A stretch of 64,000 nucleotides of DNA from Naegleria gruberi. Its lineage: Eukaryota. The translations under genes were made by a program, and so were the position numbers. Under the pieces are notes generated by a model. That model did no database searches. It saw only the letters and a list, made by a program, of their open reading frames with translations, and had not been told where the DNA came from. The stretch is taken from the NCBI GenBank assembly GCA_000004985.1, contig GG738901.1; one strand, given 5' to 3'. This document shows positions 1-42,214 of this stretch, in pieces (the first letter of the stretch is position 1; every line of letters begins with the position of its first letter).

Positions 1-180
1 AGAAATAGTGGTGCTACTGGAGGAAATGGATCATATTTTGAGAGTTCTTCTAATGACAGAAATTATGGAAATCATTATTCAAATTATGAAAATCAAACCT
101 ATCACTCATACTCTCACCACGATGATGATGATGATACACGAGATCATACAGTTTATGGAATTTCTACAACTTCCAGGTAA
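1..180 (+). CDS. 3' end of a gene entering from upstream; low-complexity Asn/Gly/Tyr/His/Asp-rich C-terminus (...NYENQTYHSYSHHDDDDDTRDHTVYGISTTSR*)
   Basis: Frame 1 is open from the window edge to TAA at 178-180. The call rests on composition and ORF only; no domain was recognised. Confidence 0.35.
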   Translation, partial: RNSGATGGNGSYFESSSNDRNYGNHYSNYENQTYHSYSHHDDDDDTRDHTVYGISTTSR

Positions 181-271
181 AGATTTTCATTTAGCATGAT
201 TATTCTTCTCAATTGTCAATAAATCCACTTTGTAAATTCAAGAAAAAAATTTAAAAGTTTATTAATCGTAT

Positions 272-439
272 GAACCCGACGGGTTCGTCTTGATGATATT
301 ACGAATATTAAATAATAAATTCTTTCTTGTTGGGATTGCTTTGTTCATTTCTTGTAACTCTGTGGACACAAATACTTGGCTTGAACACCCTATGCTGGAA
401 CCCCGGGTAGTATAGGGTACGGTGACCCGACGTAAGTAT
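272..439 (-). ncRNA. Candidate spliceosomal snRNA (U1-like)
   Basis: The minus strand starts 5'-ATACTTACGTCGGG. Its first 8 nt equal the universal U1 5' end AUACUUAC. A 7-bp stem pairs ACCCTAT/ATAGGGT (387-393 with 412-418). An Sm-like AUUUGUG lies at 367-373, with an alternative AAUUUAUU near 314-321. A terminal hairpin GAACCC-GTC-GGGTTC lies at 272-286 and is followed on the minus strand by a T7 run (plus 243-249). The length of ~168 nt is U1-like, and there is no credible ORF. Confidence 0.35.
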
Positions 440-914
440 TGCGGCAACACACTGTGGTCTCAGGGTCAACAGTGTAGTTACTGAGTGGTATGACATTTTT
501 TTTGAGACGAAATTCAAGAAAAAAATGTAATTTAGTGAATTGTATTATTATTGAGCTTTTTCTTAATGACAGAATTTCCAAAATAAAGATCATTGCATTT
601 TCCTACCATTAAGGTTAAGTTTATTTGAATCTCCGGCCACTGGTTATATAGATTTGTGGGTGATGATCTATTCTATTGCGTTGAATAAAGTCAATGACCT
701 AAAAGGCAGCATTTCTGAGCAACATACCTCATCCTTTGGATGAAGAATATGTTGAGTGAGCTTCTACCCATTGGTTTATCAACGATTGTTTTATTGTTTC
801 TTTTGGAGAAATATGCGTTTTGAAATCTCTTTGTCATTTCAATTTTGGATTTGATTTTGCAAATTTTTTGATGATCAGTCTTTCGTAAGAGGTGAACTGA
901 CTGTTCAAGAAAAA

Positions 915-2633
915 ATGTCAGCAACACTAACAAACCTCTCACACGATGATCTGTTTAATATTCTCGATTTTATTTATCCCTTCTTTTCAGAATATGTCAA
1001 GGCAGTAGGAGGAAAACAATTCGAAGCTCAACATAAACGAGAATATTTAGCCAAGATAATTTTCGGAATTATGAAAGGAAATAATGAGAGGAAGGATTGG
1101 ATTTTGGATTTTCGTGGTAAACACTCTAAAATTATGGGAATTAAACTTGTTTCCAATTTGAATTATAATGAATACTTTTACAAATCGCTCGACGATTCGA
1201 ATGTTTATGTTCCTGCTTTATATTTGAGAAAGTTTTATGAGGATTTAGTTAAGGAAGTGAAGAATTGGTTACTCATTGCAAAGAATGGTCTTTTCTATGA
1301 AATTTTAATGCAAAGTCACATTCCAATAGTTCAACTTTTTTGGGAAAGTTTATTTCACATTATTTAGAGATACTCCTATTATTATGGGAAGTATGAAGTT
1401 TAAACAATATTACAATTTGGAATTGCCAATGATTCAGGATTATATTTTGGATAATATTATTGTGCATGTGATGAAGGCAGTGGAGGAACCAGTTTGGTTA
1501 TTCGAAACTTTTGTTTTCAATGAAATTTCATCTAAAGATGCCCATAGTTTGGGATTCAAAAGTTATCTACGACATTACCAGTTAGAAGAAGGTGAAAAAC
1601 ACGAATTGTATCAGGATGTTTTGGTGGAAAAGAAAGATTGGACGAGTTTGGCAACTGACAATCATTGGGAAGGTTTCTTGATGTTTCTTTCGGATTGTTT
1701 TAACAGATATCCAACTATTTTAAGTGATTCCAAATATGTAGACTTTATCAATTCTCAATTTGAAAAAGATCTAGGAAGGATTTCAAAATTTACTACTGAG
1801 CTTGCCAAATTCCTTTACCTTGACAGAAATATTCCGATTAATCCTATAATTTCAAACAAGTTGTTTACTCTGTTATCATTCACACCAGTTTTTAAACAAA
1901 TTCTAGAAAAGAAACTGAATGAATTAAGGATAACGACAAGGAAAGAAACTCGTTTCTTGCAAATCTCTTTTTAAGAGATTCACTACTTTCTTCCTCTATT
2001 TTAAATTTACAATTCGAAATAATTGACATGCATTTAGATTATATGGACGAATGTTTGGATAGTAAGGTGATTGATTCACACTTCTCAAAGTGCCCTGTAG
2101 TGACTTATTTCATAGAGGGTGCCCTAATGATGGAAGATTTAAGCGATCCATTGAAAAGTTCCATGATTGTTATTGAGTACATTGAGAAATTTAGGAAATT
2201 ATTCGAAAGGTTCAATAGAAAAAATTTTGGTTATTCAATTTATAGAAATATCATAACATTGTTTTCAAATTTCACCCGCAGTGGTCTTACAGAAGATTCA
2301 TATGAATGGCAGTAACGTTTTATAATCTTTACTGAACTATTCCAAAACCTGGTTTCAAATAAGATTGACGATTTACCCGAAACTGACCTATCTTTTATTT
2401 TCAGATATACCTCCAATGAAAAGATTATCACCTTCCTATTCGAACAACCACCACTATTCCATCAAATGTTAGCAAGATACATTCCAGATAGAATTAATGA
2501 AAATCTTTTGAAAATTATCGAGAAATATGTTGGCAATAACAATTCATATTATCAGAGGAATCAAATTGCAATATCCAATGATGAGAAAAATCTCAATGCT
2601 AAATCTACTACCACTTCTACTTTAAGATTATAA
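915..2633 (+). CDS. Hypothetical protein locus read as four ORF blocks; two phase-consistent introns plus one unresolved frame break
   Basis: ATG at 915 follows an A-run. ORF 915-1367 and ORF 1384-1974 overlap in open frames around a T6 run (1336-1341), which suggests a 1-nt indel. Proposed introns are 1952-2037 (GTTTCT...TTTAG, phase 1) and 2312-2404 (GTAACG...TTTTCAG, phase 2). The last exon, 2405-2633, ends ...STTTSTLRL*. No domain was recognised. Confidence 0.5.
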
Positions 2634-3449
2634 GAAACACATTCTCTTCTTAAGAATGTTGTTATAGGGTTGACTGATTAATGTTGTAATTTATACATAA
2701 GTTTGTTGACCATTTCCATTAGTAGGAGGAGTATAATAAGAAGGTTGTGGAGTAACATAGGTTGGTGGTGGTTGATTGACCATCATTGGTTGACCGTATT
2801 GTGGTTGATAAGGTTGTTGAGTCATCATTGGTTGACCATATGGTTGTTGTGGTGGATATGGTTGACCATAAGGTTGTTGTTGAGGTGGATAATAAACACC
2901 AGGTCCTGGATTTTGAATAACAACTGTAGTGACAGGTGGCATTGTTGGTTGAGCAGTGACAAGAGTAGAAGGCATTGTTGCTACTCCAATGGCAGCTGCT
3001 GCTTGTTGTTCTTGAGCTCTTCTCATCATCATAAGTCTTCTCTTTCTGGAAGCAGCACTAACAATAATGATAATTGCAATAAATATTATGAAACCTGGAA
3101 TTCCAAATCCTAAACCATATCCTAAAGCATCATAATCTCCATAACTATTCGAAACACAAACATTGGAAGAACAAGTTTGGGAAGAAGAACAACATGCATA
3201 ACTAGAAGCAATACATGTTGAATAACCAGATTTTCTACAACAAGTTTGTCCAGATAAGCAATAAACATAATTAGTGGAACCTGTTACTGAGCAACAAATA
3301 CTATCTTGAACAGCTGACACTTGGCTTTCATTGAGAGATGAGAAAGAAAGTTCCCCCTTTAATGAATTATCACCATAAGTTGTCAAACGGGCAGAGATTT
3401 TGGCACCTGACACGAGGAGTAATAACACAACTAGTGAGCTGGCAATTTG
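2583..3449. repeat. Segmental duplication, copy A (paired with 6602-7469)
   Basis: Aligned by eye to 6602-7469. The core is near-identical, with a few substitutions and one 9-bp indel (accaccact, present only in copy B at ~6941-6949). The left ~60 bp are more diverged. Similarity stops right after ...agtgagctgg(c/t)aatt(t/a)ggac. Confidence 0.9.
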
Positions 3450-3899
3450 GACCCATATTCTAATTTGCTCTTTGATTTGAGTTCTTTTCAAAGTTGGAGC
3501 ACTCTTTTTGATGAAACTAATTACTTTTGGAAGAAGGTTGTTGTTGGTTGGATCTGGCTTTGAAGATGAAGGATGAAGTGCTTCGTTTTGATGAATATCG
3601 CACCTTGCTTGGTGGTGATGAATTACCTTCAACTTTACATTACAAAATTCATTGCATTGACATGAAATATAGTAGTAAAGTTGAGGAGTTCCTACTTCAC
3701 ACTTATTGAATTCCTTTCTTTCTGAGTAAATGTCTTTCAATTCATAAATCATATTGTCCTTCATAACTGCTCGGCATAAAGAAGCTTGCTCAGTCACTTC
3801 ATGAACAGAGTGCACCTTCCATGGACGTTGTAAGTGGTTACAAATTCTATCGAACACATCTTGGTGCTCAATATTTGAGAGTAGTGGAGTATAACTCAT
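2691..3899 (-). CDS. Chimeric ORF: N-terminal Cys/His zinc-finger-like region (WRKY/FAR1/FLYWCH-like pattern, weak) fused to a paralog of the Cys-rich single-pass membrane protein with a Pro/Gln/Tyr tail
   Basis: A 402-aa ORF starts at ATG 3899 after an A-run. Residues ~150-402 are near-identical to the 261-aa protein at 6702-7487. However, its signal-peptide Met and 5' flank are replaced by ...YYYISCQCNEFCNVKLKVIHHHQARCDIHQNEALH... The ORF crosses the duplication breakpoint at ~3449. Confidence 0.6.
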   Translation of the reverse strand: MSYTPLLSNIEHQDVFDRICNHLQRPWKVHSVHEVTEQASLCRAVMKDNMIYELKDIYSERKEFNKCEVGTPQLYYYISCQCNEFCNVKLKVIHHHQARCDIHQNEALHPSSSKPDPTNNNLLPKVISFIKKSAPTLKRTQIKEQIRIWVQIASSLVVLLLLVSGAKISARLTTYGDNSLKGELSFSSLNESQVSAVQDSICCSVTGSTNYVYCLSGQTCCRKSGYSTCIASSYACCSSSQTCSSNVCVSNSYGDYDALGYGLGFGIPGFIIFIAIIIIVSAASRKRRLMMMRRAQEQQAAAAIGVATMPSTLVTAQPTMPPVTTVVIQNPGPGVYYPPQQQPYGQPYPPQQPYGQPMMTQQPYQPQYGQPMMVNQPPPTYVTPQPSYYTPPTNGNGQQTYV

Positions 3900-4779
3900 T
3901 CTATTTTTTTTGCTTGTTGTTGATGAATTGTTCCTTATTGTTGTTTTGTGGTTCTATTGCAAGATATATGTGTTGGTGTGTTGTGTGGTGTTTGTTGTAT
4001 CGTTAAGAATTTTTTTGATTGGTTGAACAATTGGCGCCATGTTTAATTTCCGTGTTTTGCCTTTTAGGAACAATAAAATTTGCTGTTTAAGAACAAAAAA
4101 TTGCAAATTAAGATGGATTTCTAAATTGTTCACAAATATGTACTTTACTGTGCTGGATGTAATGGAAAATAATGCTACTCAAATTAAGATATTAGACTTC
4201 CTTAAAAGTCAAAAAGACTAAGACACAAATTACAGTTTCAAGCGAGGAGCAGGGGTAGAAATCTTACTTTTAATTTAGGGTTCATCAAAAAATTGCGAAA
4301 TAATTGGGGTAAACAACATTATTTATTTATTTATTTCTTCTTTCGTGCTCTACTAGAGTTTCTCTTTACTGCTTCTTCAAATTGTGAATTCTTTGGTCCA
4401 CGTTTTTGTTTCTATAGCGGTTCTTCTTGTTCCAATTCCTTCTCTTGTTAAGGCTATGGAATTATCGTTGCTGAGAAAGTCTTCTTCACTTTTTCTTTGT
4501 TATGATGGGGTGAAGTACAAAATAATTGTATCGTGCTGGTTGTTGTGGATTAATCTTCCTTTCTATTTACAAAAGTGTATAACCAATTACCATCTCTACT
4601 AAGGTAATATATCCTTTAGTAATTTCTTGATGGAAATAGCTCTTGGCATTCATGAAGCGAAGGTAAGGTGTTTTATTGTAGGTGCAGTGGAAACATTTGG
4701 GAGTGCCTGCTTTTGTTTTGGTAGAGGATTTGGTTCCTTGAGGTTTTTTTAAATATTTACAACAAAGAACACAGCAGAA

Positions 4780-6600
4780 GAGGTTTTCGAAAAGATAAGA
4801 ACAGATTCGTGACAACAACTTACAACAGTTGGATGGAAAACGATGCATTCGGTCAACTCTGGGAGAAAGACTCACTGAATTATCTGAGATTATTGTGTGC
4901 CTCCTTTAGGTCTGATCCCCCAAGCTCTTTTCCATCTAATCGAGAGCGAACGGAACTTTTGAAGTGCTGTAGTGGCCAACTTCTCATTGGTTCTCAATAC
5001 TATTAAGGATTTCCTTAAAAGTGAGAAAGGTTCCAAGAATGCTTAGTGTGGATCCATACACCGAATTGTTCAACAAATTCGAAGTTTATGGAGCTTTCCA
5101 ATGGTTCGTAGTGATTCACAATATTCCAAGATCCAATCCTCATACAATAGAATACTTTGCAACTTACCTTTCAGAAAGGGTATGTTTTAAACAATTTGAA
5201 GCCAGCTCTTCAATCTTTTGTAGACGTTGAAGGTTGGAAACTTAATGTTCCCAATGGTTTTGCTAGACTAAAGAAAGGACTTTCATAAGGGTTACTACAT
5301 TGTTGATAGAAAGAAACTAAAAAATAAATGGAGTTTCAGCTTATGATATTAAGAATTATATTGATTCCGTGGCTTCCCATAATGAATTCACAGAATGTGG
5401 CAGGAGAATTGCAAAAGTATTTTTCATTCCATCAGAGAAAAATTCAATTGCATACAAACTTTGCTAAGCCTTTTAAGCGATTGGAAATCATCACCAGAAT
5501 TGATAAGTATGGTAGAAAAAGAATGCGGAAACCACACCATCGACAGATTTGCAACATCAGAGTAGGCAACGACAATCCAATTCAACTCTTGGTTAGAAAA
5601 CGATGCGGTTCAAGAACTTTGGGAACAAAACTCAATCAATTATTGTGTTCCTCCAATAGGTCTGATACCACAAGCTCTATTTCACTTGATCCCATCAAAG
5701 GATATAGCAACATTCGTAGTTCCTTTTTGGCTAACAGCTTACTGATCTTGCTAAAGATATCTTTTGAACAGAGAAGTGTTCCGCTCCAATGGCTTATAAC
5801 AGAGCATTACAACGAACTGCACAAACTATCAGGCAATCTTTAGTTCATGGCAGTCAAAGTGAATGGAATGCTCTCCTTTCAATGAGATTTCAGGCTTTAT
5901 CTACTGCTCTTGCAGAATCCACAGTCAAAAAGTATTCTTTAACTTATTCAGAATTTTCTTATTTCTGTCTACTCCATTATTTTAAAACATTCAGAAATTA
6001 GAGCCCCACCCTCTTGCAGTTCACAAAAAGCTCTACAGGTTGAATAATTTGAAACCTACGTTAGATTTCTATTCAAATTTGGAAGGATGGATCCGTAAAT
6101 TATTCCAATCAATTCTAGAATTCAAACAAGGTTTGAATAAGTTTTATTCACGAGCTGATATTGACACTTGATACTCCTTTTATCAGTTGGGTTTCTTTTG
6201 ATCTTTCTGGTCACAAAACAGACCAAAATTTGACAGATGAAGAAACTCCTATTGAGGAAATAAGAAATACTGTCCAGTTTATAACCTTAGAAGATACATG
6301 GATTATGCCAGATCGTGAGATGAAAATTTTAAGGATTTGGCAATTATTGAATAAAGACTTGATGTTATTTGAAAAGATTTCAAAGTTGGCTCAATCTTCA
6401 GCTAATTATCAAAAGATTGATGTTTGATTTCTTGTGTTGTTTCAAAATAAAGAACTTTAAAACACAAAAAAGTTGTTTTGAGACAGCTGGTAATTGGGTG
6501 CCTAATTCAAAAGTGAGATTGAGATATCAACGTAGAATTGGCCTTGCTACTCATGGTTTAACTACTTCTATTATGAGAACTGATTAATTGTATATATAAA
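4780..6600 (+). mobile_element. Decayed tyrosine-recombinase retroelement/Crypton-like fragments (DIRS/Ngaro-like), two tandem partial copies
   Basis: Copy 2, frame of 5539-5745, reads IDRFATSE*ATTIQFNSWLENDAVQELWEQNSINYCVPPIGLIPQALFHLIPSKDIATFVVPFWLTAY*. This is the (D/I)xFA(S/T)...N...W...DA...W...NY.PP..LI...ATxVVPxW block typical of YR-element polyproteins, here with an in-frame TAG at 5563-5565. Copy 1 at ~4790-4990 reads DKNRFVTTTYNSWMENDAFGQLWEKDSLNY... SAM-like integrase N-terminal strings follow each copy (IEYFATYLSE..., STVKKYSLTYSEFSYFC), as does NNLKP(A/T)L...EGW. A KYCPVYNLRRYM motif lies at ~6265-6300. There are multiple frameshifts and stops, and the boundaries are uncertain. 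Confidence 0.55.
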
Positions 6601-6601
6601 T

Positions 6602-7469
6602 AGAAAAATGTCAATGCTGCTACTAGTTCAACTTTAAGATTATAAGAAACCGTTTCTCTTCTTAAGAATGTTGTTATCGGGTTGACTGATTAATGTTTAA
6701 TTTATACATAAGTTTGTTGACCATTTCCATTGGTAGGAGGAGTATAATAAGAAGGTTGTGGAGTAACATAGGTTGGTGGTGGTTGATTGGCCATCATTGG
6801 TTGACCGTATTGTGGTTGATAAGGTTGTTGAGTCATCATTGGTTGACCATATGGTTGTTGTGGTGGATATTGTTGACCATAAGGTTGTTGTTGAGGTGGA
6901 TAATAAACACCAGGTCCAGGATTTTGAATAACAACTGTAGTACCACCACTGACAGGTGGCATTGTTGGTTGAGCAGTGACAAGAGTAGAAGGCATTGTTG
7001 CTACTCCAACGGCAGCTGCTGCTTGTTGTTCTTGAGCTCTTCTCATCATCATAAGTCTTCTCTTTCTAGAAGCAGCACTAACAATAATGATAATTGCAAT
7101 AAATATTATGAAACCTGGAATTCCAAATCCTAAACCATATCCTAAAGCATCATAATCTCCATAACTATTCGAAACGCAAACATTGGAAGAACAAGTTTGT
7201 GAAGAGGAACAACATGCATAACTAGAAGCAATACATGTTGAATAACCAGATTTTCTACAACAAGTTTGTCCAGATAAGCAATAAACATAATTAGTGGAAC
7301 CTGTCACTGAGCAACAAATACTATCTTGAACAGCTGACACTTGGCTTTCATTGAGAGATGAGAAAGAAAGTTCCCCCTTTAATGAATTATCATCATAAGT
7401 TGTCAAACGGGCAGAGATTTTGGCACCTGACACGAGGAGTAATAACACAACTAGTGAGCTGGTAATTAG
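6602..7469. repeat. Segmental duplication, copy B (paired with 2583-3449)
   Basis: See copy A. The offset between copies is ~4.02 kb. Copy B carries the intact gene 6702-7487 and a ~45-nt relic of the 3' end of the 915-2633 CDS. Confidence 0.9.
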
Positions 7470-7487
7470 GACGAGAATTGATTTCAT
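6702..7487 (-). CDS. Secreted/type I membrane protein: signal peptide, Cys-rich ectodomain, one TM helix, basic stop-transfer, Pro/Gln/Tyr-rich cytoplasmic tail with a PPxY-like motif
   Basis: A 261-aa ORF starts at ATG 7487 after an A-run. It reads MKSILVLITSSLVVLLLLVSG (signal), CCSVTGSTNYVYCLSGQTCCRKSGYSTCIASSYACCSSSQTCSSNVC, then TM GIPGFIIFIAIIIIVSAA followed by SRKRRLMMMRR. The tail has PQQPYGQ repeats and PPPTY. Confidence 0.8.
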   Translation of the reverse strand: MKSILVLITSSLVVLLLLVSGAKISARLTTYDDNSLKGELSFSSLNESQVSAVQDSICCSVTGSTNYVYCLSGQTCCRKSGYSTCIASSYACCSSSQTCSSNVCVSNSYGDYDALGYGLGFGIPGFIIFIAIIIIVSAASRKRRLMMMRRAQEQQAAAAVGVATMPSTLVTAQPTMPPVSGGTTVVIQNPGPGVYYPPQQQPYGQQYPPQQPYGQPMMTQQPYQPQYGQPMMANQPPPTYVTPQPSYYTPPTNGNGQQTYV

Positions 7488-8323
7488 TTTTTTTAATGGG
7501 GAAAAGTAAGAAGGAATTTATTTTGTTGATATTTACAACATAATGTTGATGAACCTGAGAGCTGCCTTTCAACAACATTCGAATAGCACTATGGTGGAAT
7601 AGAGATAGGAAGGTGAGGTGTCAATGTCAGCAGTATCTTTTGTTTGGTACTTTTTTAGACCCCAAGATTCGTTTAGGCTACGATACTTGCCAAAAATTAT
7701 GTTGTATTACGTTTTCTCAAGCCTGTTTGTGTTTCACAAAAAATAATTAGCGATTAATTTGAAAACTATATTTGTATTGATGTGTTTTGAATTCGTCCAA
7801 AAAGTAGTGAGGTGTTGTGACATTAATTTCTACTTGTTGTTGCATAGAATTGTTTTTCAGTGTAGTTTTACACTCTAACTCTATCGATTCAATCAATTGA
7901 TTGATCTACATACAACAGTGAAAGATTTTGACAATTCCTTACGATTATCTCTAAAATAATTATTGAACCAAAAACTTGTTTTATTGTTCTGGTATTAAAA
8001 ATTGAACAAATGCTCAATACTATTGCTCAATTTCTTAGTCTTTTTTTGAATGTCTTGTGATATTCAGGGTGAGAGGATCTGTGACAGGGCTTTTTTATGA
8101 TGACCAAACACTGTTAAGTTGACAAGCAAACATCTTTAGTAAACTATTTTTAACAGATATTCAGTTCTCAAAACCATAACATTTAAACTTTTTCAATTTT
8201 TACGAATTCAATAAGGAAAACAAATTCGAATAGAATTTCAATTCGTTCTAAAAATCTTTGTCATTAAGTTCACTATTCACATGTCCAGCACCATGAACTT
8301 GATTCCAAAAATCATTAAAAAAA

Positions 8324-9808
8324 ATGCTTAAAATCAGTTCTACTACTGCCTTCACGACTCGCTCACCAACAATCAAACAACAATTGCAAAAACAAATCTT
8401 TTCCGATGATATTTGCTTTGAAATTTTATCATTTCTTGATTTTAAATTTATTCTAACGAATTGTTGTTTAATTTCTCATCAGTGGGAGAATGTCATCAAT
8501 GTACAATCTAATTTATCAGTCATTTTCAATAATCAAAAAGTGACGAATGAATTTATTGATAAATTAATGAAAAATAGTTATTTGAAACGTTTCGTTTCGT
8601 TGAAAACTAGAGAAAGAAGCTTTTTGCATGATCGAGAAAAAGTTTTGAAACTTGTTGGAATGATGCAGAATTTGAAATCACTCTCCATTGTTGGTAATGG
8701 ATTAGTGGATGAACATTTGAAAGAAATTAGTGAAATGAAAGGTTTAACTTTACTCGATGTGAGTGAGAATAAGTTTGGAAAGGAAGGTGCGGAAAAAATT
8801 AGTGGAATGGTTGGATTGACCACATTGAATATTAATGATAATTATATACTTGATGAAGGGGCTAAATTCATTGGAACGATGAAACAATTGACCTTGTTGA
8901 AAATGAAATATTGTGAAATTAGAGAAGAAGGTGCGAGAGCAATAAGTGAATTGAAAAATTTAACATTTCTCAATCTGCATGGTAATTTTATAGGTGATAA
9001 AGGAGCCAGCTATATAAGTGAAATGGTCAATCTGACACATCTCAATGTTGGTAGCACCCAATTGACAGCTGAAGGGGCAAGACATGTTAGTGGACTCAAA
9101 AATCTGAAATCTCTATTGATTCATACCAATCAAATTGGACATCAAGGAGCAAAGTGGATTAGTACAATGAAAGATCTGGAAGGGTTGACTTCACTTGATG
9201 TTAGTGGAAACTCCATTCTTGATCAAGGAGTACAATATTTGAGTGAAATGTCAAATCTGACACATTTAGATATTGGAAGTAATCATGTTGGAGTTAAAGG
9301 AATTGAATCAATTATTGGAATGAAAGGATTAATCTCGCTAAATGTCAGTAGTAATGATTTGGGATCATCAGGAGCAAAGTTAATCAGTGGAATGTCAAAT
9401 TTAACCTCACTAAACATTTCAGCCAATCGACTATTAGGTGAAGGAGCTAAATTTATTGGAGAAATGCATAACGTAACAATATTAGTTATCAGAAACAATG
9501 ATATTGGTGATGAAGGAGCCAAATTCATTTGTAAAATGAAACAATTGAAATCTCTCAATGCTGTGTATAATAGAATATCTTCGAAAGGATTTGAATCAAT
9601 AAGTGAAATGAAACAATTAACATCACTTGATATTGGTTACAACAGTATTGACTCAAAAGGAGCTAAATCTGTTCGCAAATTGAAAAATTTGACTTCTCTC
9701 AATGTCAGAAGTAATATGATAGATGATGAAGGATTGAAAGCTATTGGTCAACTCAAAATTCCTTATCTAACCACTGGATATCAACAAGCAAAACAATCCA
9801 ATAATTAA
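8324..9808 (+). CDS. F-box-like + RNI-type leucine-rich repeat protein
   Basis: A 494-aa ORF starts at ATG after an A-run. The N-terminal F-box-like string is ICFEILSFLDFKFILTNCCLISHQWENVI. About 16 tandem 24-residue repeats follow, of the form LTxLxxxxNxIGxEGAKxISxMKx. Confidence 0.85.
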   Translation: MLKISSTTAFTTRSPTIKQQLQKQIFSDDICFEILSFLDFKFILTNCCLISHQWENVINVQSNLSVIFNNQKVTNEFIDKLMKNSYLKRFVSLKTRERSFLHDREKVLKLVGMMQNLKSLSIVGNGLVDEHLKEISEMKGLTLLDVSENKFGKEGAEKISGMVGLTTLNINDNYILDEGAKFIGTMKQLTLLKMKYCEIREEGARAISELKNLTFLNLHGNFIGDKGASYISEMVNLTHLNVGSTQLTAEGARHVSGLKNLKSLLIHTNQIGHQGAKWISTMKDLEGLTSLDVSGNSILDQGVQYLSEMSNLTHLDIGSNHVGVKGIESIIGMKGLISLNVSSNDLGSSGAKLISGMSNLTSLNISANRLLGEGAKFIGEMHNVTILVIRNNDIGDEGAKFICKMKQLKSLNAVYNRISSKGFESISEMKQLTSLDIGYNSIDSKGAKSVRKLKNLTSLNVRSNMIDDEGLKAIGQLKIPYLTTGYQQAKQSNN

Positions 9809-9893
9809 CTAAAATGTATGAATGCGAATAAACTTGGGCTTTCACATGTTGTTGTTATCAATTAGAAACCAAGAAAAATGTTTAAAAATATTT

Positions 9894-9964
9894 CTCCCCC
9901 TGGTGGGTTGAATATCGACCTGCAGATTAACAGTCTGACGCTCTACCGACTGAGCTAAGGGGGA
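9894..9964 (-). tRNA. tRNA-Asn(GUU)-like gene with defective T-arm (possible pseudogene)
   Basis: The minus strand reads TCCCCCT TA GCTC AGTCGGTA GAGC G TCAGA CTGTTAA TCTGC AGGTC GATATTCAACCCACC AGGGGGA G. The 7-bp acceptor and the D-arm are perfect, the anticodon stem has a 27:43 mismatch, and the anticodon is GTT. However, the T-arm is 2 nt short and its 5' strand cannot pair with CCACC, so the B-box is degraded. A T5 run lies just downstream. Confidence 0.5.
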
Positions 9965-10514
9965 TACATTCAGCAATAAAAAATATTTATAATATTCGAT
10001 GGAAAAAACTGTTTCTTTCCATTTTTGGAATTAACAGCCAAAGAGGTAAATATAATCAATTCGGTTTATCAATTAATAAAACAAAAAATCTGATTTCCTT
10101 CATTGCATTGTAATCATTGCCCTTCTCAGACCAATCAAAATTTGTCCAACCCATGCACAAACTCCTTGAGTATTACAACTTTCGAATAATATGACTGAAT
10201 TTCTTAGCTCATTCCCAAAATCTCATTCACCTCTTATTCATCAAAAACACATCCACAATCCATACAATAACCAAAACTCACTCATCAATATCTTCAAGTT
10301 CATTCCTTTAATCTTCTATCTGTCTTCCATTATCTAAAACCAATTACACCTTCTAATTTTCATCATCTATGTAACCCAACAAGAAGTAAACTAATCACCT
10401 TGGGTAATCAAATTGCTGGGGGAACCTGTCAAATTCTGAGTCAACTAAACTTCATTTGAACCTTTTAGAGGTTGCAGTAAATCGGTTTTTCATTGCAATT
10501 CGAAACAAAAAAAA

Positions 10515-11119
10515 ATGAGAGAAAGTGGCGTAGTAAGTATTTGCATCTTGTGAAAACAATCTCACAAACTGTCTTTCTCATTACCCAAATGGTTTCTAAT
10601 ATACTTTCGAATAATAACAATATCGTTTTGTGATGATCATTATTAATAGGCTTATCTTCTTTGGTTAGGTTGTTGTATTGGATTCTTCGGTTTGCACCGT
10701 TTCTATTTGGACTCTGTCATTTTGGGTGTCATCTGGTTCTGTACTGCTGGTTTGTTCGGCTTTGGTCAATTGATTGATCTTAGTAAGTAATCTTATTTCT
10801 AATATATGATGATTTAACCATTATCTATTACTCACACTAACACACATTCCAACTTTCTCTGTTACGAAAATCAACTTTCGAATAACAATTTAATTCTAAA
10901 GTCCTCATCCCAGGTATGGTCGATGAATGTAACCGTAAATATGGTACTCCACAAGTTACCACTGCTGTTACCAACGTAACAACTTATCAAACTCAACCAC
11001 AAGTCCAACAACCATACGTCCCACCACAACAAGCATATTATCCACCACAACAAGGTTATGTTCCTCCACAACAAGGATATGCTCAACAACCTGCTGTTAA
11101 TGTTTATGTTCAACAATAA
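10515..11119 (+). CDS. TM2 domain-containing membrane protein with Pro/Gln/Tyr-rich tail (3 exons)
   Basis: Exons are 10515-10532, 10650-10782 and 10914-11119. Both introns are GTAAGT...AG, the phases are consistent, and the total is 357 nt. The product is [55 protein letters not shown]..., which carries the TM2 signature G..G.HRFYL...G......G..G..Q..D. Confidence 0.8.
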
Positions 11120-11249
11120 ATATTATTAAATAATTTTAATTATGATGATGAAATATTGTTTTGTTTCGAATAGTGCTAAAGAAGACTAATGGATTGTGAA
11201 GAAAAGTTAAGAAGGGTGATGATGGATCCATCAGAATATACAATAAAAA

Positions 11250-12480
11250 ATGATGTTAAGAAGGAGAGCAGAAGATGAGTTGCAACTCTCAGCAACCATC
11301 ATCAAGGTTGAAAATCTCCAAACAGATCCCAAGTAAGTTTATTGCTTTATTCGAAAGTTGCCAACAACCCACATCAACAGCTCTGTCTATGCCATCCTAA
11401 CTTTCAATCAGGTCCAAAAGAAAGTTTCAACAGCCGACAAAAACCTCGAAGGAAAGAATAGTTACGAATGGTCTGACAATAACAATGTGCTCTTCAAGGA
11501 AATTCCAGAATTTTGCAATGAAAGACTCAAAATTGAAGTGAGGGATAAACAATCGGATAAGTTAATGTAAGGATTTTATGGATCTCAACTTATCTAATCA
11601 AATTGATTTATTTCATTACTATATTATTAATTGATATGATTTTAATGTCGTGCAATGATCATCATCATCAGGAATTAATTTATTATTTTAATTGATGATG
11701 ATCAAATTTATTTCCGAATGATCGATCAATTGAATGTAATATTAATAATAATAATACTATGTATTGATAATGATGAAAATGGATATATATTGGAAAATTA
11801 GAGGAATGACCACAACCTCACTTGAATCATTACCAAAGAATTTGGAAATTACACGTAAACTCAAACTCTACGATACCAAGAATGCAGTTGTTCACTTGAG
11901 GATGAAAGCAATTGGATTTGGAGTTGAGCAACGTTTGTTTGAGGTTCACTCTAAAATAATGCCCTTCCTCAGATCTATTCACACACCAACTGATGCCATG
12001 AGAAATGTTGTCATTATTCCAATGACAATGGAGAATTTCTTTGGATTGGAGCCAGCTATTGAGGCATTGAAGAAGATTAGAGAGAGAAGTTCTCCAGTGG
12101 CTACTCATGCTCTCTTTCCAGTCTTGTTGATTTTCCCTGGAAAGTATTTAGTGAGAGAGACCATTAAATTGACAGCTGCTTTGAATGGTTTGGTAATTTT
12201 TGGAATTACTGACAGTAAAGATAGTAGAGTTGAAATTATTCCATACAAGAAGAGTGAACCAATATTTGATTTATCAGTTGATGTGAATATTATTCACATG
12301 CATGGGTTGACTTTTGAGGCAGATAGTTTGTGTGTTAAGGCAATTAATCCAACAACTAAATTGGAAGCCTACTCGTGTGATTTATCAAAGATTTGGCCAC
12401 CTAATAGTAGTGTTGCTGATATTGTAAATTATGAATTCTTTGGAGAGGAAAATATGGACGAAGAAGAAGGTTTCTACTAG
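11250..12480 (+). CDS. C2-domain-like protein (3 exons)
   Basis: Exons are 11250-11332, 11381-11566 and 11802-12480 (948 nt in total). The introns are 48 nt (GTAAGT...CAACAG) and 235 nt (GTAAGG...AAATTAG). The spliced N-terminus is LQLSATIIKVENLQTDPNSVYAILTF...RLKIEVRDKQSDKLIGMTTTSLESL, which follows the C2 pattern (L.V.I..A.NL...D...YV......L...V.D...D..IG...I.L..L). Confidence 0.65.
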
Positions 12481-12656
12481 TAATATAAAAATTGTAATTG
12501 TATTACATGTCATTTCTTAACATTTTTATCTTGATCCAGTTAACTTTGTAAACCATTCAATAGAAGTCAATTAGACCTTCAAGTGTCAGAAGAAGATCAA
12601 TAGTAATCAAACTTAGTTCCAACTTCCTTAATTTACAATTTTCAAACTTTAAAAAA

Positions 12657-14180
12657 ATGCTTTCAAACAACCTTCCCTCCACAGATGTCTCCACTCAATC
12701 AGTAGCAGCAGCAACAACAACTCTTCCGAATGGTTATTCTCGGGAGTGGCCAATCATCGTTGAAAATTTACAGAAAATTGCAAATAGAGAAAAAGTGTTT
12801 GGATCGATTGCAGCTTGGATTGAATTTGTAAAGGATTTGGATCAGAAAATTGTTGATGATTGTATGAATAATAATCGTGATGATGACGATGATGGTAGTG
12901 TTCAAGAAGTTTCCAGATCAACTGATTATCACTTTAGAAATTTATCATTCCTTTATAAAAAGATGAATATTTCGGACAAGAAGGAAGCAAAAGAACATTC
13001 ATTGATGAGTGAGAAGGAATTTATGGAAAAGGTTGTTCCAAAGATTGCTCAGTGGATTTTGGATTTGGAAAGAGAGTTTCCAAGTGGAAAAATTCCAGTC
13101 TTGATGATGAATGCATCTGGTGTTGTGAGATTGACCAAGAGACAGATCAGGTCGATTATGAGTTGTGCATTTTGTTGTTTATTCAGAGAAAGAGGAGATG
13201 TATCAAAGAAAAATATGGGTGTTTTCGAGTTTGGATTATTCTGGAGTGTTGCTTCACAAAATTTCCTAATGTCATTATTTCACTATTTTGAGAGGATGTA
13301 TAAATTAGACAATGATAGCTCAACAAGCAGTTCTTTGGATGAAATAATTTTATTTGAAAGGAAGGTTTTAAAGAACAATTATAGGCGATTCATAGAAGAG
13401 GAAATTTGCAAGAGTCAACAAAAGATGTGCCCTTTATTATTCAAACAAGGAAAGATTCAAGATAATCTTAATCACTTGATGGTTGATTTTGCAAATTGTA
13501 TGATTGGTGGACATGTGCTCGGTGGTGCAGTTGCACAAGAAGAGATTTTATTTGTTGAATGTCCAGAGCTTTTTGCATCCATTTTAATTTGCCCTCAAAT
13601 GCAAGTTCATGAAACTATTAAGTTCACAGGATTTGAGAGATATTCAAATTTGAAAGGATACATTAAGAGTATGACTTATGAGACCTATCTAGACAATCAA
13701 CCAGTAATCGAGAACGTAAGAAAGAATCAACTAATTGCTATGGATGCTCTGCAAGGAGTGGGAATTTTCCAATTCCAAAAAGAATTCATTCTTAGAGAAA
13801 TATTCAAAACCACCTGTGCTTTCACATCAAAAGAGAATGATTTCCTCAAAGATTCATCATCTGATTTACCAACATTAGAAAACGAACCTATTGCAAGTGG
13901 ATTCTGGGGCTGTGGAATGTTTGGAGGTGATAAGCAATTGAAAACAATCATTCAATGGTTGAGTGCTACTTTATGTAATAGACCTTCTCTAACTATTCAT
14001 CTCTTTTCACCTGAGGATGAGAAAATTGAACAAGATTTCAACACAAAAATACTTCCATTAATTGTGGAGAAGGAGTTAAGTCTTGGTCAAGTTGCAGATG
14101 CATTACTCAACACTTACCAATCAGTTAGAAAAACAACATCTTTTTCAATTTTTGAATTTCTTCATCAAAACTTCAAATAA
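12657..14180 (+). CDS. PARG: Poly(ADP-ribose) glycohydrolase
   Basis: A 507-aa single ORF starts at ATG after an A-run. The PARG catalytic signature is IGGHVLGGAVAQEEILFVECPELFASIL (GGG-x6-8-QEE class), and ASGFWGCGMFGGDKQLKTIIQWLSAT is also present. Confidence 0.9.
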   Translation: MLSNNLPSTDVSTQSVAAATTTLPNGYSREWPIIVENLQKIANREKVFGSIAAWIEFVKDLDQKIVDDCMNNNRDDDDDGSVQEVSRSTDYHFRNLSFLYKKMNISDKKEAKEHSLMSEKEFMEKVVPKIAQWILDLEREFPSGKIPVLMMNASGVVRLTKRQIRSIMSCAFCCLFRERGDVSKKNMGVFEFGLFWSVASQNFLMSLFHYFERMYKLDNDSSTSSSLDEIILFERKVLKNNYRRFIEEEICKSQQKMCPLLFKQGKIQDNLNHLMVDFANCMIGGHVLGGAVAQEEILFVECPELFASILICPQMQVHETIKFTGFERYSNLKGYIKSMTYETYLDNQPVIENVRKNQLIAMDALQGVGIFQFQKEFILREIFKTTCAFTSKENDFLKDSSSDLPTLENEPIASGFWGCGMFGGDKQLKTIIQWLSATLCNRPSLTIHLFSPEDEKIEQDFNTKILPLIVEKELSLGQVADALLNTYQSVRKTTSFSIFEFLHQNFK

Positions 14181-14327: not shown

Positions 14328-14400
14328 CGCCCCACGTGGGGCTCGAACCCACGACCGTTGGATTAAAAGTCCAACGCTCTACCGACTGAGCTAGCAGGGC
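14328..14400 (-). tRNA. tRNA-Lys(UUU): tRNA-Lys (anticodon UUU)
   Basis: The minus strand reads GCCCTGC TA GCTC AGTCGGTA GAGC G TTGGA CTTTTAA TCCAA CGGTC GTGGG TTCGAGC CCCAC GTGGGGC G. This is a canonical 73-nt cloverleaf with no encoded CCA. Confidence 0.92.
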
Positions 14401-42039: not shown

Positions 42040-42137
42040 AGTGTTGAGTAAATAAAAACTGATGAAACATTTAGACATCACCAAATATAATGTCGTTTTT
42101 TCCCGTAAATGAGAAATATTTGCATTAAGAACAAGAT

Positions 42138-42209
42138 TCCCGTGTAGTCCAATGGCTAGGATACCTGGCTTTCACCCAGGAGGTCCGGGTTCAATTCCCG
42201 GCATGGGAG
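42138..42209 (+). tRNA. tRNA-Glu(UUC): tRNA-Glu (anticodon UUC)
   Basis: The sequence is TCCCGTG TA GTCC AATGGCTA GGAT A CCTGG CTTTCAC CCAGG AGGT CCGGG TTCAATT CCCGG CATGGGA G. This is a canonical 72-nt cloverleaf with no encoded CCA. Confidence 0.92.
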
Positions 42210-42214
42210 AATCG

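Follow-up and report, generated by a model that had tools for sequence, protein, structure and literature searches.

A 402-codon open reading frame (ORF) on the minus strand of a 64,000-nt stretch of Naegleria gruberi DNA (contig GG738901.1 of assembly GCA_000004985.1; hereafter the window) was found to be a genuine, very young chimeric ORF of strain NEG-M. The ORF (2691..3899, the stop codon included) is identical, by exact-sequence match, to the annotated NEG-M model NAEGRDRAFT_52539 (XP_002672021.1; D2VVA6), which carries the name "predicted protein". It joins two coding sequences in a single frame: an N-terminal module of 149 codons that is best read as part of a transposase-related gene, and a 5'-truncated copy of a membrane-protein gene, here called gene X, whose intact paralogue lies nearby. 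A first-pass annotation of the window had proposed a chimeric gene formed at a duplication breakpoint, and this was borne out at the DNA level by a single-copy ancestral form of the locus, by the identification of both parents and by the in-frame join. Taken as a whole, we hold it to be likely that one local rearrangement, which duplicated gene X and placed foreign DNA between the copies, gave rise to the fusion.

The C-terminal ~253 codons of the ORF are ~98% identical to an intact 261-aa gene on the same strand (6702-7487), the product of which begins with MKSILVLITSSLVV. Both genes form part of a direct repeat (2584-3449 and 6602-7466, copies A and B, respectively), with a unit of 866 bp, a start-to-start distance of ~4.0 kb and an identity of 95.7% overall and ~98% in the coding sequence (CDS). 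In copy A, which contributes to the chimera, the first 6-8 codons and the promoter of the membrane-protein gene are gone, and the spot matching the start of the paralogue reads ...KEQIRIWVQIASSLVV.... Past the junction, the first in-frame methionine is at residue 290, which leaves copy A without an initiator, and the loss of the initiator and of the signal-peptide start was thus confirmed. The breakpoint had been placed at 3449; the similarity between the copies ends between 3447 and 3453, in agreement with that position. Across the breakpoint, copy B reads ATGAAATCAATTCTC-GTCCTAATTACCAGC and copy A reads ...TTAGAATATGG-GTCCAAATTGCCAGC, with a microhomology of 4-8 nt, GTCC(N)AATT, common to both copies. 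The junction 24-mer was not found in the JGI metagenomes.

The exact 261-aa sequence encoded by copy B was absent from a collection of 15 billion proteins in which the chimeric 402-aa ORF was present. Copy B may be unannotated or differently modelled in NEG-M.

Upstream of the junction, the frame remains open for 149 more codons and reaches an ATG at 3899 (-) that is preceded by the A-run AAAAAAAATAGA; the ~150 open codons and the A-run context noted in the first pass were therefore correct. The chance of 149 open codons in DNA of 33% GC was estimated at P ~1e-5 to 9e-5 for this region, and the stretch is open because it is real coding sequence. The module was compared with a 74%-identical protein (P0001), encoded on a 623-bp metagenomic contig (L001; European Nucleotide Archive ERZ4903137). 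Over 91 ungapped codons, the non-synonymous divergence (dN) was 0.155 and the synonymous divergence (dS) ~1.4-1.45, giving a dN/dS of 0.11. This ratio indicates that the 149 N-terminal codons are genuine coding sequence, which was under strong purifying selection in the past. In contig L001, an 8-nt gap directly following ...VKLK shifts the frame, which from there on still encodes YHKGRCDIYQNNEAHSPSSKP, where the window counterpart is HHHQARCDIHQNEALHPSSSKP. Past the frameshift, the changes are mainly synonymous and the indels come in multiples of three. The frameshift may stem from a sequencing error, mark a pseudogene or reflect a true difference; the contig ends soon after it.

An exhaustive phmmer search over 1.84 billion representatives returned one further relative of the module, a protein of 226 aa (P0009) with 27% identity over residues 7-137 (E 1.2e-7). 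When the P0009 part was searched back against the window by tblastn, it matched at 3471-3881 only (E 1.2e-11). No further copies of the module were identified within the window or in the JGI metagenomes, and the two protein sets searched (5.8 billion and 1.84 billion) held nothing beyond P0001 and the P0009 group. An intron starting at AAG/GTAATT (~3626), which would cut out the HHH part of the Cys/His motif, was considered and ruled out, since VIHHH/LIHHH is kept in P0009 despite the low identity and the synonymous-biased change persists after the frameshift in L001.

The history of the repeat was read from a close relative. A 1,526-bp Logan contig from run ERR1078381 (L002) encodes an intact 261-aa protein (P0003), and the 90%-identity protein cluster has two members only, the 402-aa chimera and P0003. 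In a three-way alignment, the sequence of L002 5' of the ATG matched the upstream sequence of copy B, and that 3' of the stop codon matched what follows copy A, namely the 3' end of a convergent neighbour gene. With L and R for the left and right flanks, L002 is arranged L-X-R, a junction pair absent from NEG-M, in which the order is L-X(A)-I-X(B)-R, with I the 3.15-kb segment between the copies. Because L002 pairs the 3' flank of copy A with the 5' flank of copy B, the single-copy L-X-R arrangement is the ancestral state. Copy A has kept the ancestral left flank and copy B the ancestral right (promoter) flank.

The sites that differ between the two copies were alternately A-like and B-like along L002, with at least 10 switches. 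In the CDS, six events were derived in A, six in B and ~8 were unique to L002, which corresponds to a star tree. The changes in copy A comprised three synonymous and two non-synonymous substitutions and one in-frame 9-bp deletion (SGG), and those in copy B three synonymous and three non-synonymous substitutions. The possibility that L002 is a deletion product of recombination between A and B was ruled out by the alternation of A-like and B-like sites. A larger and older duplication that included the neighbour gene (915-2634) was likewise ruled out, as only ~100 nt past the X gene are shared, and of the neighbour gene itself no more than the last ~50 nt are duplicated. A search for homologues of the X family returned the L002 protein only. 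The search was not exhaustive: P0001 failed to come back, perhaps crowded out of the candidate list by matches to the PQ-rich tail.

The existence of the simple L-X-R haplotype in a close relative, the ~98% identity of the copies and the assembly of NEG-M from shotgun reads could also be taken to mean that two haplotypes, or dispersed copies, were stitched together during assembly, so that no chimeric ORF exists in vivo. We consider such an artefact very improbable. Both novel junctions (3449/3450 and 6601/6602) lie in continuous sequence without Ns, the relic of the neighbour gene in copy B is ~85% identical to its counterpart, as befits a paralogous copy and not an allele, and the differences between A and B are interleaved derived states on both copies.

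At the edge of copy B that faces segment I (6602-6700), the last 17 codons of the neighbour gene and intergenic DNA survive as a relic. This edge is only ~85% identical to 2584-2685, while the CDS is ~98% identical. When polarised with L002, ~6 copy-B-specific substitutions were packed within ~60 nt of the junction, a cluster compatible with a relaxation of constraint or with error-prone synthesis during repair of the breakpoint.

The origin of the N-terminal module was approached through P0009. P0009 comes from a 3.3-kb contig (L003), on which an ORF of 696 codons lies 24 nt downstream of it and in frame with it. The 696-aa product matched the Pfam SWIM profile at 19.8 bits (curated cut-off 19.6) and, with an E of 0.0049, positions 4-99 of the 99 in the MULE (Mutator-like element) profile. 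The locus recurs on a further contig (L004) at 99.7% identity over 2,145 bp, there disrupted by an internal deletion and frameshifts. The core order of MULE transposases is an N-terminal WRKY-GCM1 domain, the catalytic domain and SWIM, and stand-alone WRKY-GCM1 fragments that lost the transposase have been described (Babu et al. 2006, PMC1702500). Since P0009 adjoins the MULE and SWIM ORF in the published domain position, the best reading of the module is that it derives from the N-terminal region of a gene related to Mutator-like transposases; we infer that P0009 and the MULE/SWIM ORF made up one protein. Contig L003 also contains a 40-nt inverted repeat (65-104 and 423-462; 90% complementary) between its upstream region and the stretch coding for the Cys motif.

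Within the window, a tblastn search with the MULE and SWIM ORF of L003 against the whole sequence found no catalytic or SWIM part, and the 402-aa ORF gave no Pfam MULE match (DDE catalytic domain PF10551). There were no inverted repeats of at least 40 nt within 1-14000 and only two weak pairs of 19-23 nt within 2000-8500; no MULE-type terminal inverted repeats (TIRs) or target-site duplications (TSDs) of 8-11 bp were found around the region within the window. The link to transposases that had been suggested for the N-terminal part thus stands through its homologue upstream of a MULE and SWIM ORF, and does not extend to a catalytic domain in the window itself.

Pack-MULEs make chimeric ORFs out of captured host fragments, and with a MULE-related module in the ORF, a Mutator-like element might have taken up a fragment of X next to its transposase 5' region. 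This capture is hardly credible and was largely ruled out by a test of the flanks and by the absence of TIRs. Neither copy of X has both ancestral flanks, with A retaining the left and B the right, which is the signature of a local duplication; no TIRs bracket the region, and neither a catalytic domain nor a second element end was found in the window.

Whether the module belongs to a named zinc-finger family was a separate question. Residues 75-109 of the ORF read YYYISCQCNEFCNVKLKVIHHHQARCDIHQNEALH, and within them C80, C82 and C86 are invariant across the three aligned homologues. In the pattern read from the alignment, the spacing is C-x5-C-x21-H-x2-H in P0009 and C80-x5-C86-x22-H109 in the window, where H94-96, C100 and H103 are the other His and Cys residues near the motif. 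Members of the WRKY-GCM1 superfamily have a four-stranded beta fold and, ~22-23 residues after the N-terminal Cys dyad, a C-terminal HxH or HxC dyad. On checking, the descriptive statements of the first-pass annotation were all correct (ORF, paralogue, junction and motif string); the profile match to WRKY, FAR1 or FLYWCH on which its zinc-finger proposal depended failed to appear. In hmmscan at E<=10, no match to WRKY (PF03106), FAR1 (PF03101) or FLYWCH (PF04500) was obtained for the 402-aa ORF, the 150-aa module, P0001 or P0009, with controls recovered at 1.6e-28 (WRKY4) and 3.7e-26 (FAR1 domain). A profile of the three homologues had no match in the PDB. With hhalign, the alignment to WRKY4 (1wj2) fell in the expected register (YSERKEF/YRWRKYG, GTPQLYYYISC/GNPYPRSYYKC and FCNVK/GCGVR) and was non-significant (E 0.083, probability 0.7%); that to the FAR1 domain covered six columns only and was also non-significant (E 0.069). 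AlphaFold2 models built from three- and five-sequence alignments had mean predicted local distance difference test (pLDDT) scores of 35.9 and 36.1, too poor for fold comparison. Membership of the module in the WRKY-GCM1 group is plausible but unproven, and draws on motif spacing and domain position.

The 149-codon module forms the minus-strand edge of segment I. The segment is absent from the single-copy relative L002 and unique within the window. On its plus strand, only short, broken frames were seen, and the rest of the segment is full of stops and frameshifts. A broken coding motif, ..DRFATSE..NSW.ENDA..LWE....NYCVPP.GLIPQALFHLI, was identified in two diverged versions at 4812-4934 and 5572-5700 (+), followed downstream by AESTVKKYSLTYSEFSYFC and ...ATHGLTTSIMRTD (5789-6001 and 6369-6587, + strand). 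A Pfam scan of all the ORFs of segment I gave no significant match, and a frame-repaired fragment gave a weak Dam-methyltransferase hint only (PF05869, E 0.11). The plus-strand fragments may correspond to the methyltransferase and tyrosine-recombinase portion of a heavily degraded DIRS-like retroelement, which we treat as a lead only.

The following course of events would account for the locus. One rearrangement would have produced a second, directly repeated copy of 866 bp of X, with 3.15 kb of foreign DNA of transposon origin at the junction. The mechanism that we infer as most likely is tandem duplication during replication or repair, with a templated insertion and with ends joined through 4-8 nt of microhomology; transposition is disfavoured because there are no TIRs or TSDs. 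Copy B retained the promoter and the ATG, and copy A lost the promoter and the first 6-8 codons. Copy A was joined in frame, which has a chance of one in three, to a gene fragment that ends at the edge of I with its codon 149/150. By homology, that fragment is the N-terminal region, presumably DNA-binding, of a gene related to Mutator-like transposases, and it came without the catalytic and SWIM parts.

Gene X is predicted to encode a lineage-restricted type I membrane protein of 261 aa, with a signal peptide, a Cys-rich ectodomain, one transmembrane segment and a PQ/Y-rich tail. In copy A, the hydrophobic region of the signal peptide is preceded by a basic flank (KKSAPTLKRTQIKEQIR) and the cleavage motif VSG/AK is kept; the SGG deletion lies in the tail region. 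With the hydrophobic peak kept and a basic N-flank, it is reasonable to suppose that the signal peptide has turned into an internal transmembrane segment. If the promoter of the transposase gene still fires, the product would start with a basic, Cys/His-bearing cytosolic N-domain (residues 1-149). The old signal peptide would then be either a signal anchor (N-in) or an internal signal that is still cut at VSG/AK, which signal peptidase could do, as the motif is intact. Cutting there would yield the ordinary mature X protein, and the fusion would in effect be a promoter swap. The ectodomain, the transmembrane segment and the tail would keep their normal topology in the fusion product.

A number of observations weigh against this account. 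The provenance of L002 is given by a sequencing-run accession only. On L003, the MULE match is below the Pfam gathering score, and three in-frame stops (TAA, TAA and TGA; L003 899-927) part P0009 from the MULE ORF. At the first His of the C-terminal dyad of P0009, the window has Ala, and a WRKY, FAR1 or FLYWCH fold received no support from Pfam, the PDB or hhalign, the structure models being unusable. In a literature search by the accessions of the gene and of the source runs, the locus appeared in no paper, and the exact 402-aa protein was found in genome-derived databases only. Finally, ~6 changes per copy are too few to tell constraint from neutrality in copy A.

These last points bear on what the ORF is today. 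Copy A could be a dead-on-arrival pseudogene, with an inactive promoter or no product, and the 402-aa model a result of ORF-based gene calling. We place this somewhat short of an even chance; it overlaps with the explanation preferred here and differs from it on expression only. The prior for an in-frame join is one in three, and with only ~6 lineage-specific events in the ~760 bp of copy A, its frame would be expected to be intact even without selection; stops and frameshifts abound in the remainder of segment I, homologues of the module were absent from the annotated Naegleria proteins apart from one metagenomic fragment, and no literature or expression record was found for the locus. Set against these, the N-terminal fragment is intact, with an ATG and an A-rich leader, and shows past purifying selection, so that its promoter was probably functional until recently, and the changes in copy A (three synonymous, two non-synonymous and the in-frame deletion) are no worse than those in copy B.

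The same intact ORF, in which the indel specific to copy A is in frame, could instead reflect a functional new gene kept by selection, either as a membrane-tethered DNA-binding protein of transposase origin or as X under a new promoter with the N-domain cut off by signal peptidase. The predicted topology is coherent (basic N-flank, hydrophobic region kept, VSG/AK site), and transposase DNA-binding domains have repeatedly been recruited into host genes (PMC1702500; bioRxiv 10.1101/2020.05.07.082677). A selected function is nevertheless unlikely: the copies have diverged too little for selection to be detected, the module is unproven as a zinc finger and misses one expected His ligand, and a DNA-binding domain on a secretory-pathway membrane has no obvious target unless released. 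Most probably, the fusion has been selectively neutral so far, its frame being open through youth and not through maintenance. It is distinctly doubtful that the fusion is expressed and that a DNA-binding protein derived from a transposase and anchored in the membrane has been caught at its birth, at <2% divergence, in a heterolobosean amoeba, with the former signal peptide acting as a signal anchor or as a cleavable internal signal from which the N-domain is set free.

Table 1. Coordinates of the chimeric ORF, its parts and the surrounding repeat in the window.
Feature	Coordinates	Strand	Basis or content
Chimeric ORF, 402 codons (coordinates include the stop codon)	2691..3899	-	ORF list; exact-sequence match to annotated model
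N-terminal module, codons 1-150	3450..3899	-	dN/dS 0.11 against L001/P0001; homology to P0009; own ATG and A-rich upstream context
Cys/His motif, residues 80-109; candidate WRKY-GCM1-like zinc site	3573..3662	-	C80-x-C82-x3-C86-x7-HHH-x3-C100-x2-H103-x5-H109
Fusion junction, transposase-related fragment / 5'-truncated copy A	3447..3453	.	In frame; GTCC then AATT microhomology
Former signal-peptide h-region IASSLVVLLLLVSGA, residues 152-166, now internal	3402..3446	-	19-residue Kyte-Doolittle peak 2.17
Cys/Ser-rich ectodomain, residues 167-258; 10 Cys in residues 172-250	3126..3401	-	
Transmembrane segment, residues 259-284	3048..3125	-	Hydropathy
Basic stop-transfer stretch, then P/Q/Y-rich cytoplasmic tail, residues 285-402	2694..3047	-	
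Repeat unit X, copy A	2584..3449	-	CDS minus first 6-8 codons, 3' untranslated region and last 51 nt of convergent neighbour gene
Segment I, 3.15 kb	3450..6601	.	- strand, transposase-related fragment; + strand, degenerate transposon-like fragments
Repeat unit X, copy B	6602..7466	-	Complete paralogue and relic of neighbour gene 3' end
Intact 261-aa paralogue	6702..7487	-	Signal peptide, Cys-rich ectodomain, transmembrane segment, PQ-rich tail

The region is gene-dense and has further features besides those of the fusion (Table 1). A 494-aa protein composed of leucine-rich repeats of ~24 residues, with a 72-nt periodicity in the DNA, is encoded at 8324-9808 (+), and a gene annotated as poly(ADP-ribose) glycohydrolase at 12657-14180 (+); both are ordinary neighbours with no relation to the chimera. 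A gene fragment at ~10590-11119 (+) has a TM2-domain-like stretch, an apparent intron and then a P/Q/Y-rich tail, whose likeness to that of gene X is limited to composition. Two tRNA genes, tRNA-Lys(UUU) at 14328-14400 (-) and tRNA-Glu(UUC) at 42137-42210 (+), lie in intergenic gaps.

The consequences depend on expression. If expressed, the fusion would be a clean case of gene origination dated by a close relative, with both parents identified and the breakpoints placed within a few bases, in which promoter, start codon and a putative DNA-binding module all came from a transposon. If this is true, the unfused locus in the sister strain would make the effects of the capture of a transposase domain by a secretory-pathway gene directly testable. 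If it is not expressed, a young pseudogene has been correctly diagnosed and the annotation needs a caveat. In either case, NAEGRDRAFT_52539 is flagged as a chimera and not as an ordinary "predicted protein". Mutator-like transposase remnants are documented here in Naegleria; none surfaced in the literature searched.

Chimeric genes at the breakpoints of tandem duplications have been described in Drosophila. As in those cases, a partial duplicate lacking its 5' end has recruited a 5' end and a promoter at the breakpoint, and the chimera is very young with its intact parent alongside. The fusion described here differs in that its 5' end comes from a transposon gene fragment within a 3.15-kb insertion and not from a neighbouring host gene. 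For the hypothetical product alone, an analogy may be drawn with membrane-tethered transcription factors such as SREBP and the plant NAC membrane-tethered transcription factors (NAC-MTFs), in which a nucleic-acid-binding N-domain in the cytosol, predicted here, is followed by a membrane span. Here, however, a second transmembrane segment and a luminal Cys-rich domain would be present, and DNA binding, regulated proteolysis and expression are hypothetical.

The module itself compares with the N-terminal WRKY-GCM1-type DNA-binding domains of MULE transposases and of those derivatives that stand alone or were domesticated, FAR1/FHY3 among them (PMC1702500). Its homologue P0009 is N-terminal to a MULE catalytic domain, which is followed by SWIM; read as a pattern, the module has a Cys dyad with a His ~21-22 residues on, and aromatic residues before the first Cys (YYYISC); and fragments without a transposase domain are already described for that group. 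It differs in having no significant profile match, in missing the first His of the HxH dyad and in being fused to a membrane protein, where the known domains stand alone or with a MULE/SWIM core.

Host-transposase fusion genes formed by transposase capture include SETMAR and the KRAB-transposase fusions (Cosby et al., bioRxiv 10.1101/2020.05.07.082677). In common with these, a transposase-derived portion, DNA-binding by prediction in the present case, is joined to host coding sequence in a new architecture. Those fusions arose mostly by exon capture with alternative splicing and are old enough for constraint, whereas the ORF described here has a direct in-frame junction in the DNA of an intron-poor genome and is ~2% diverged from its parent. 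Unlike them, it has the transposase part at its 5' end, supplying the promoter, and its host partner is a membrane protein of the secretory pathway. The fusion thus belongs to two known classes, the duplication-breakpoint chimeras and the host-transposase fusions, and what is particular to it is the combination of an in-frame join at the DNA level, a 5' transposon part, a membrane partner, extreme youth and an ancestral allele in a relative.

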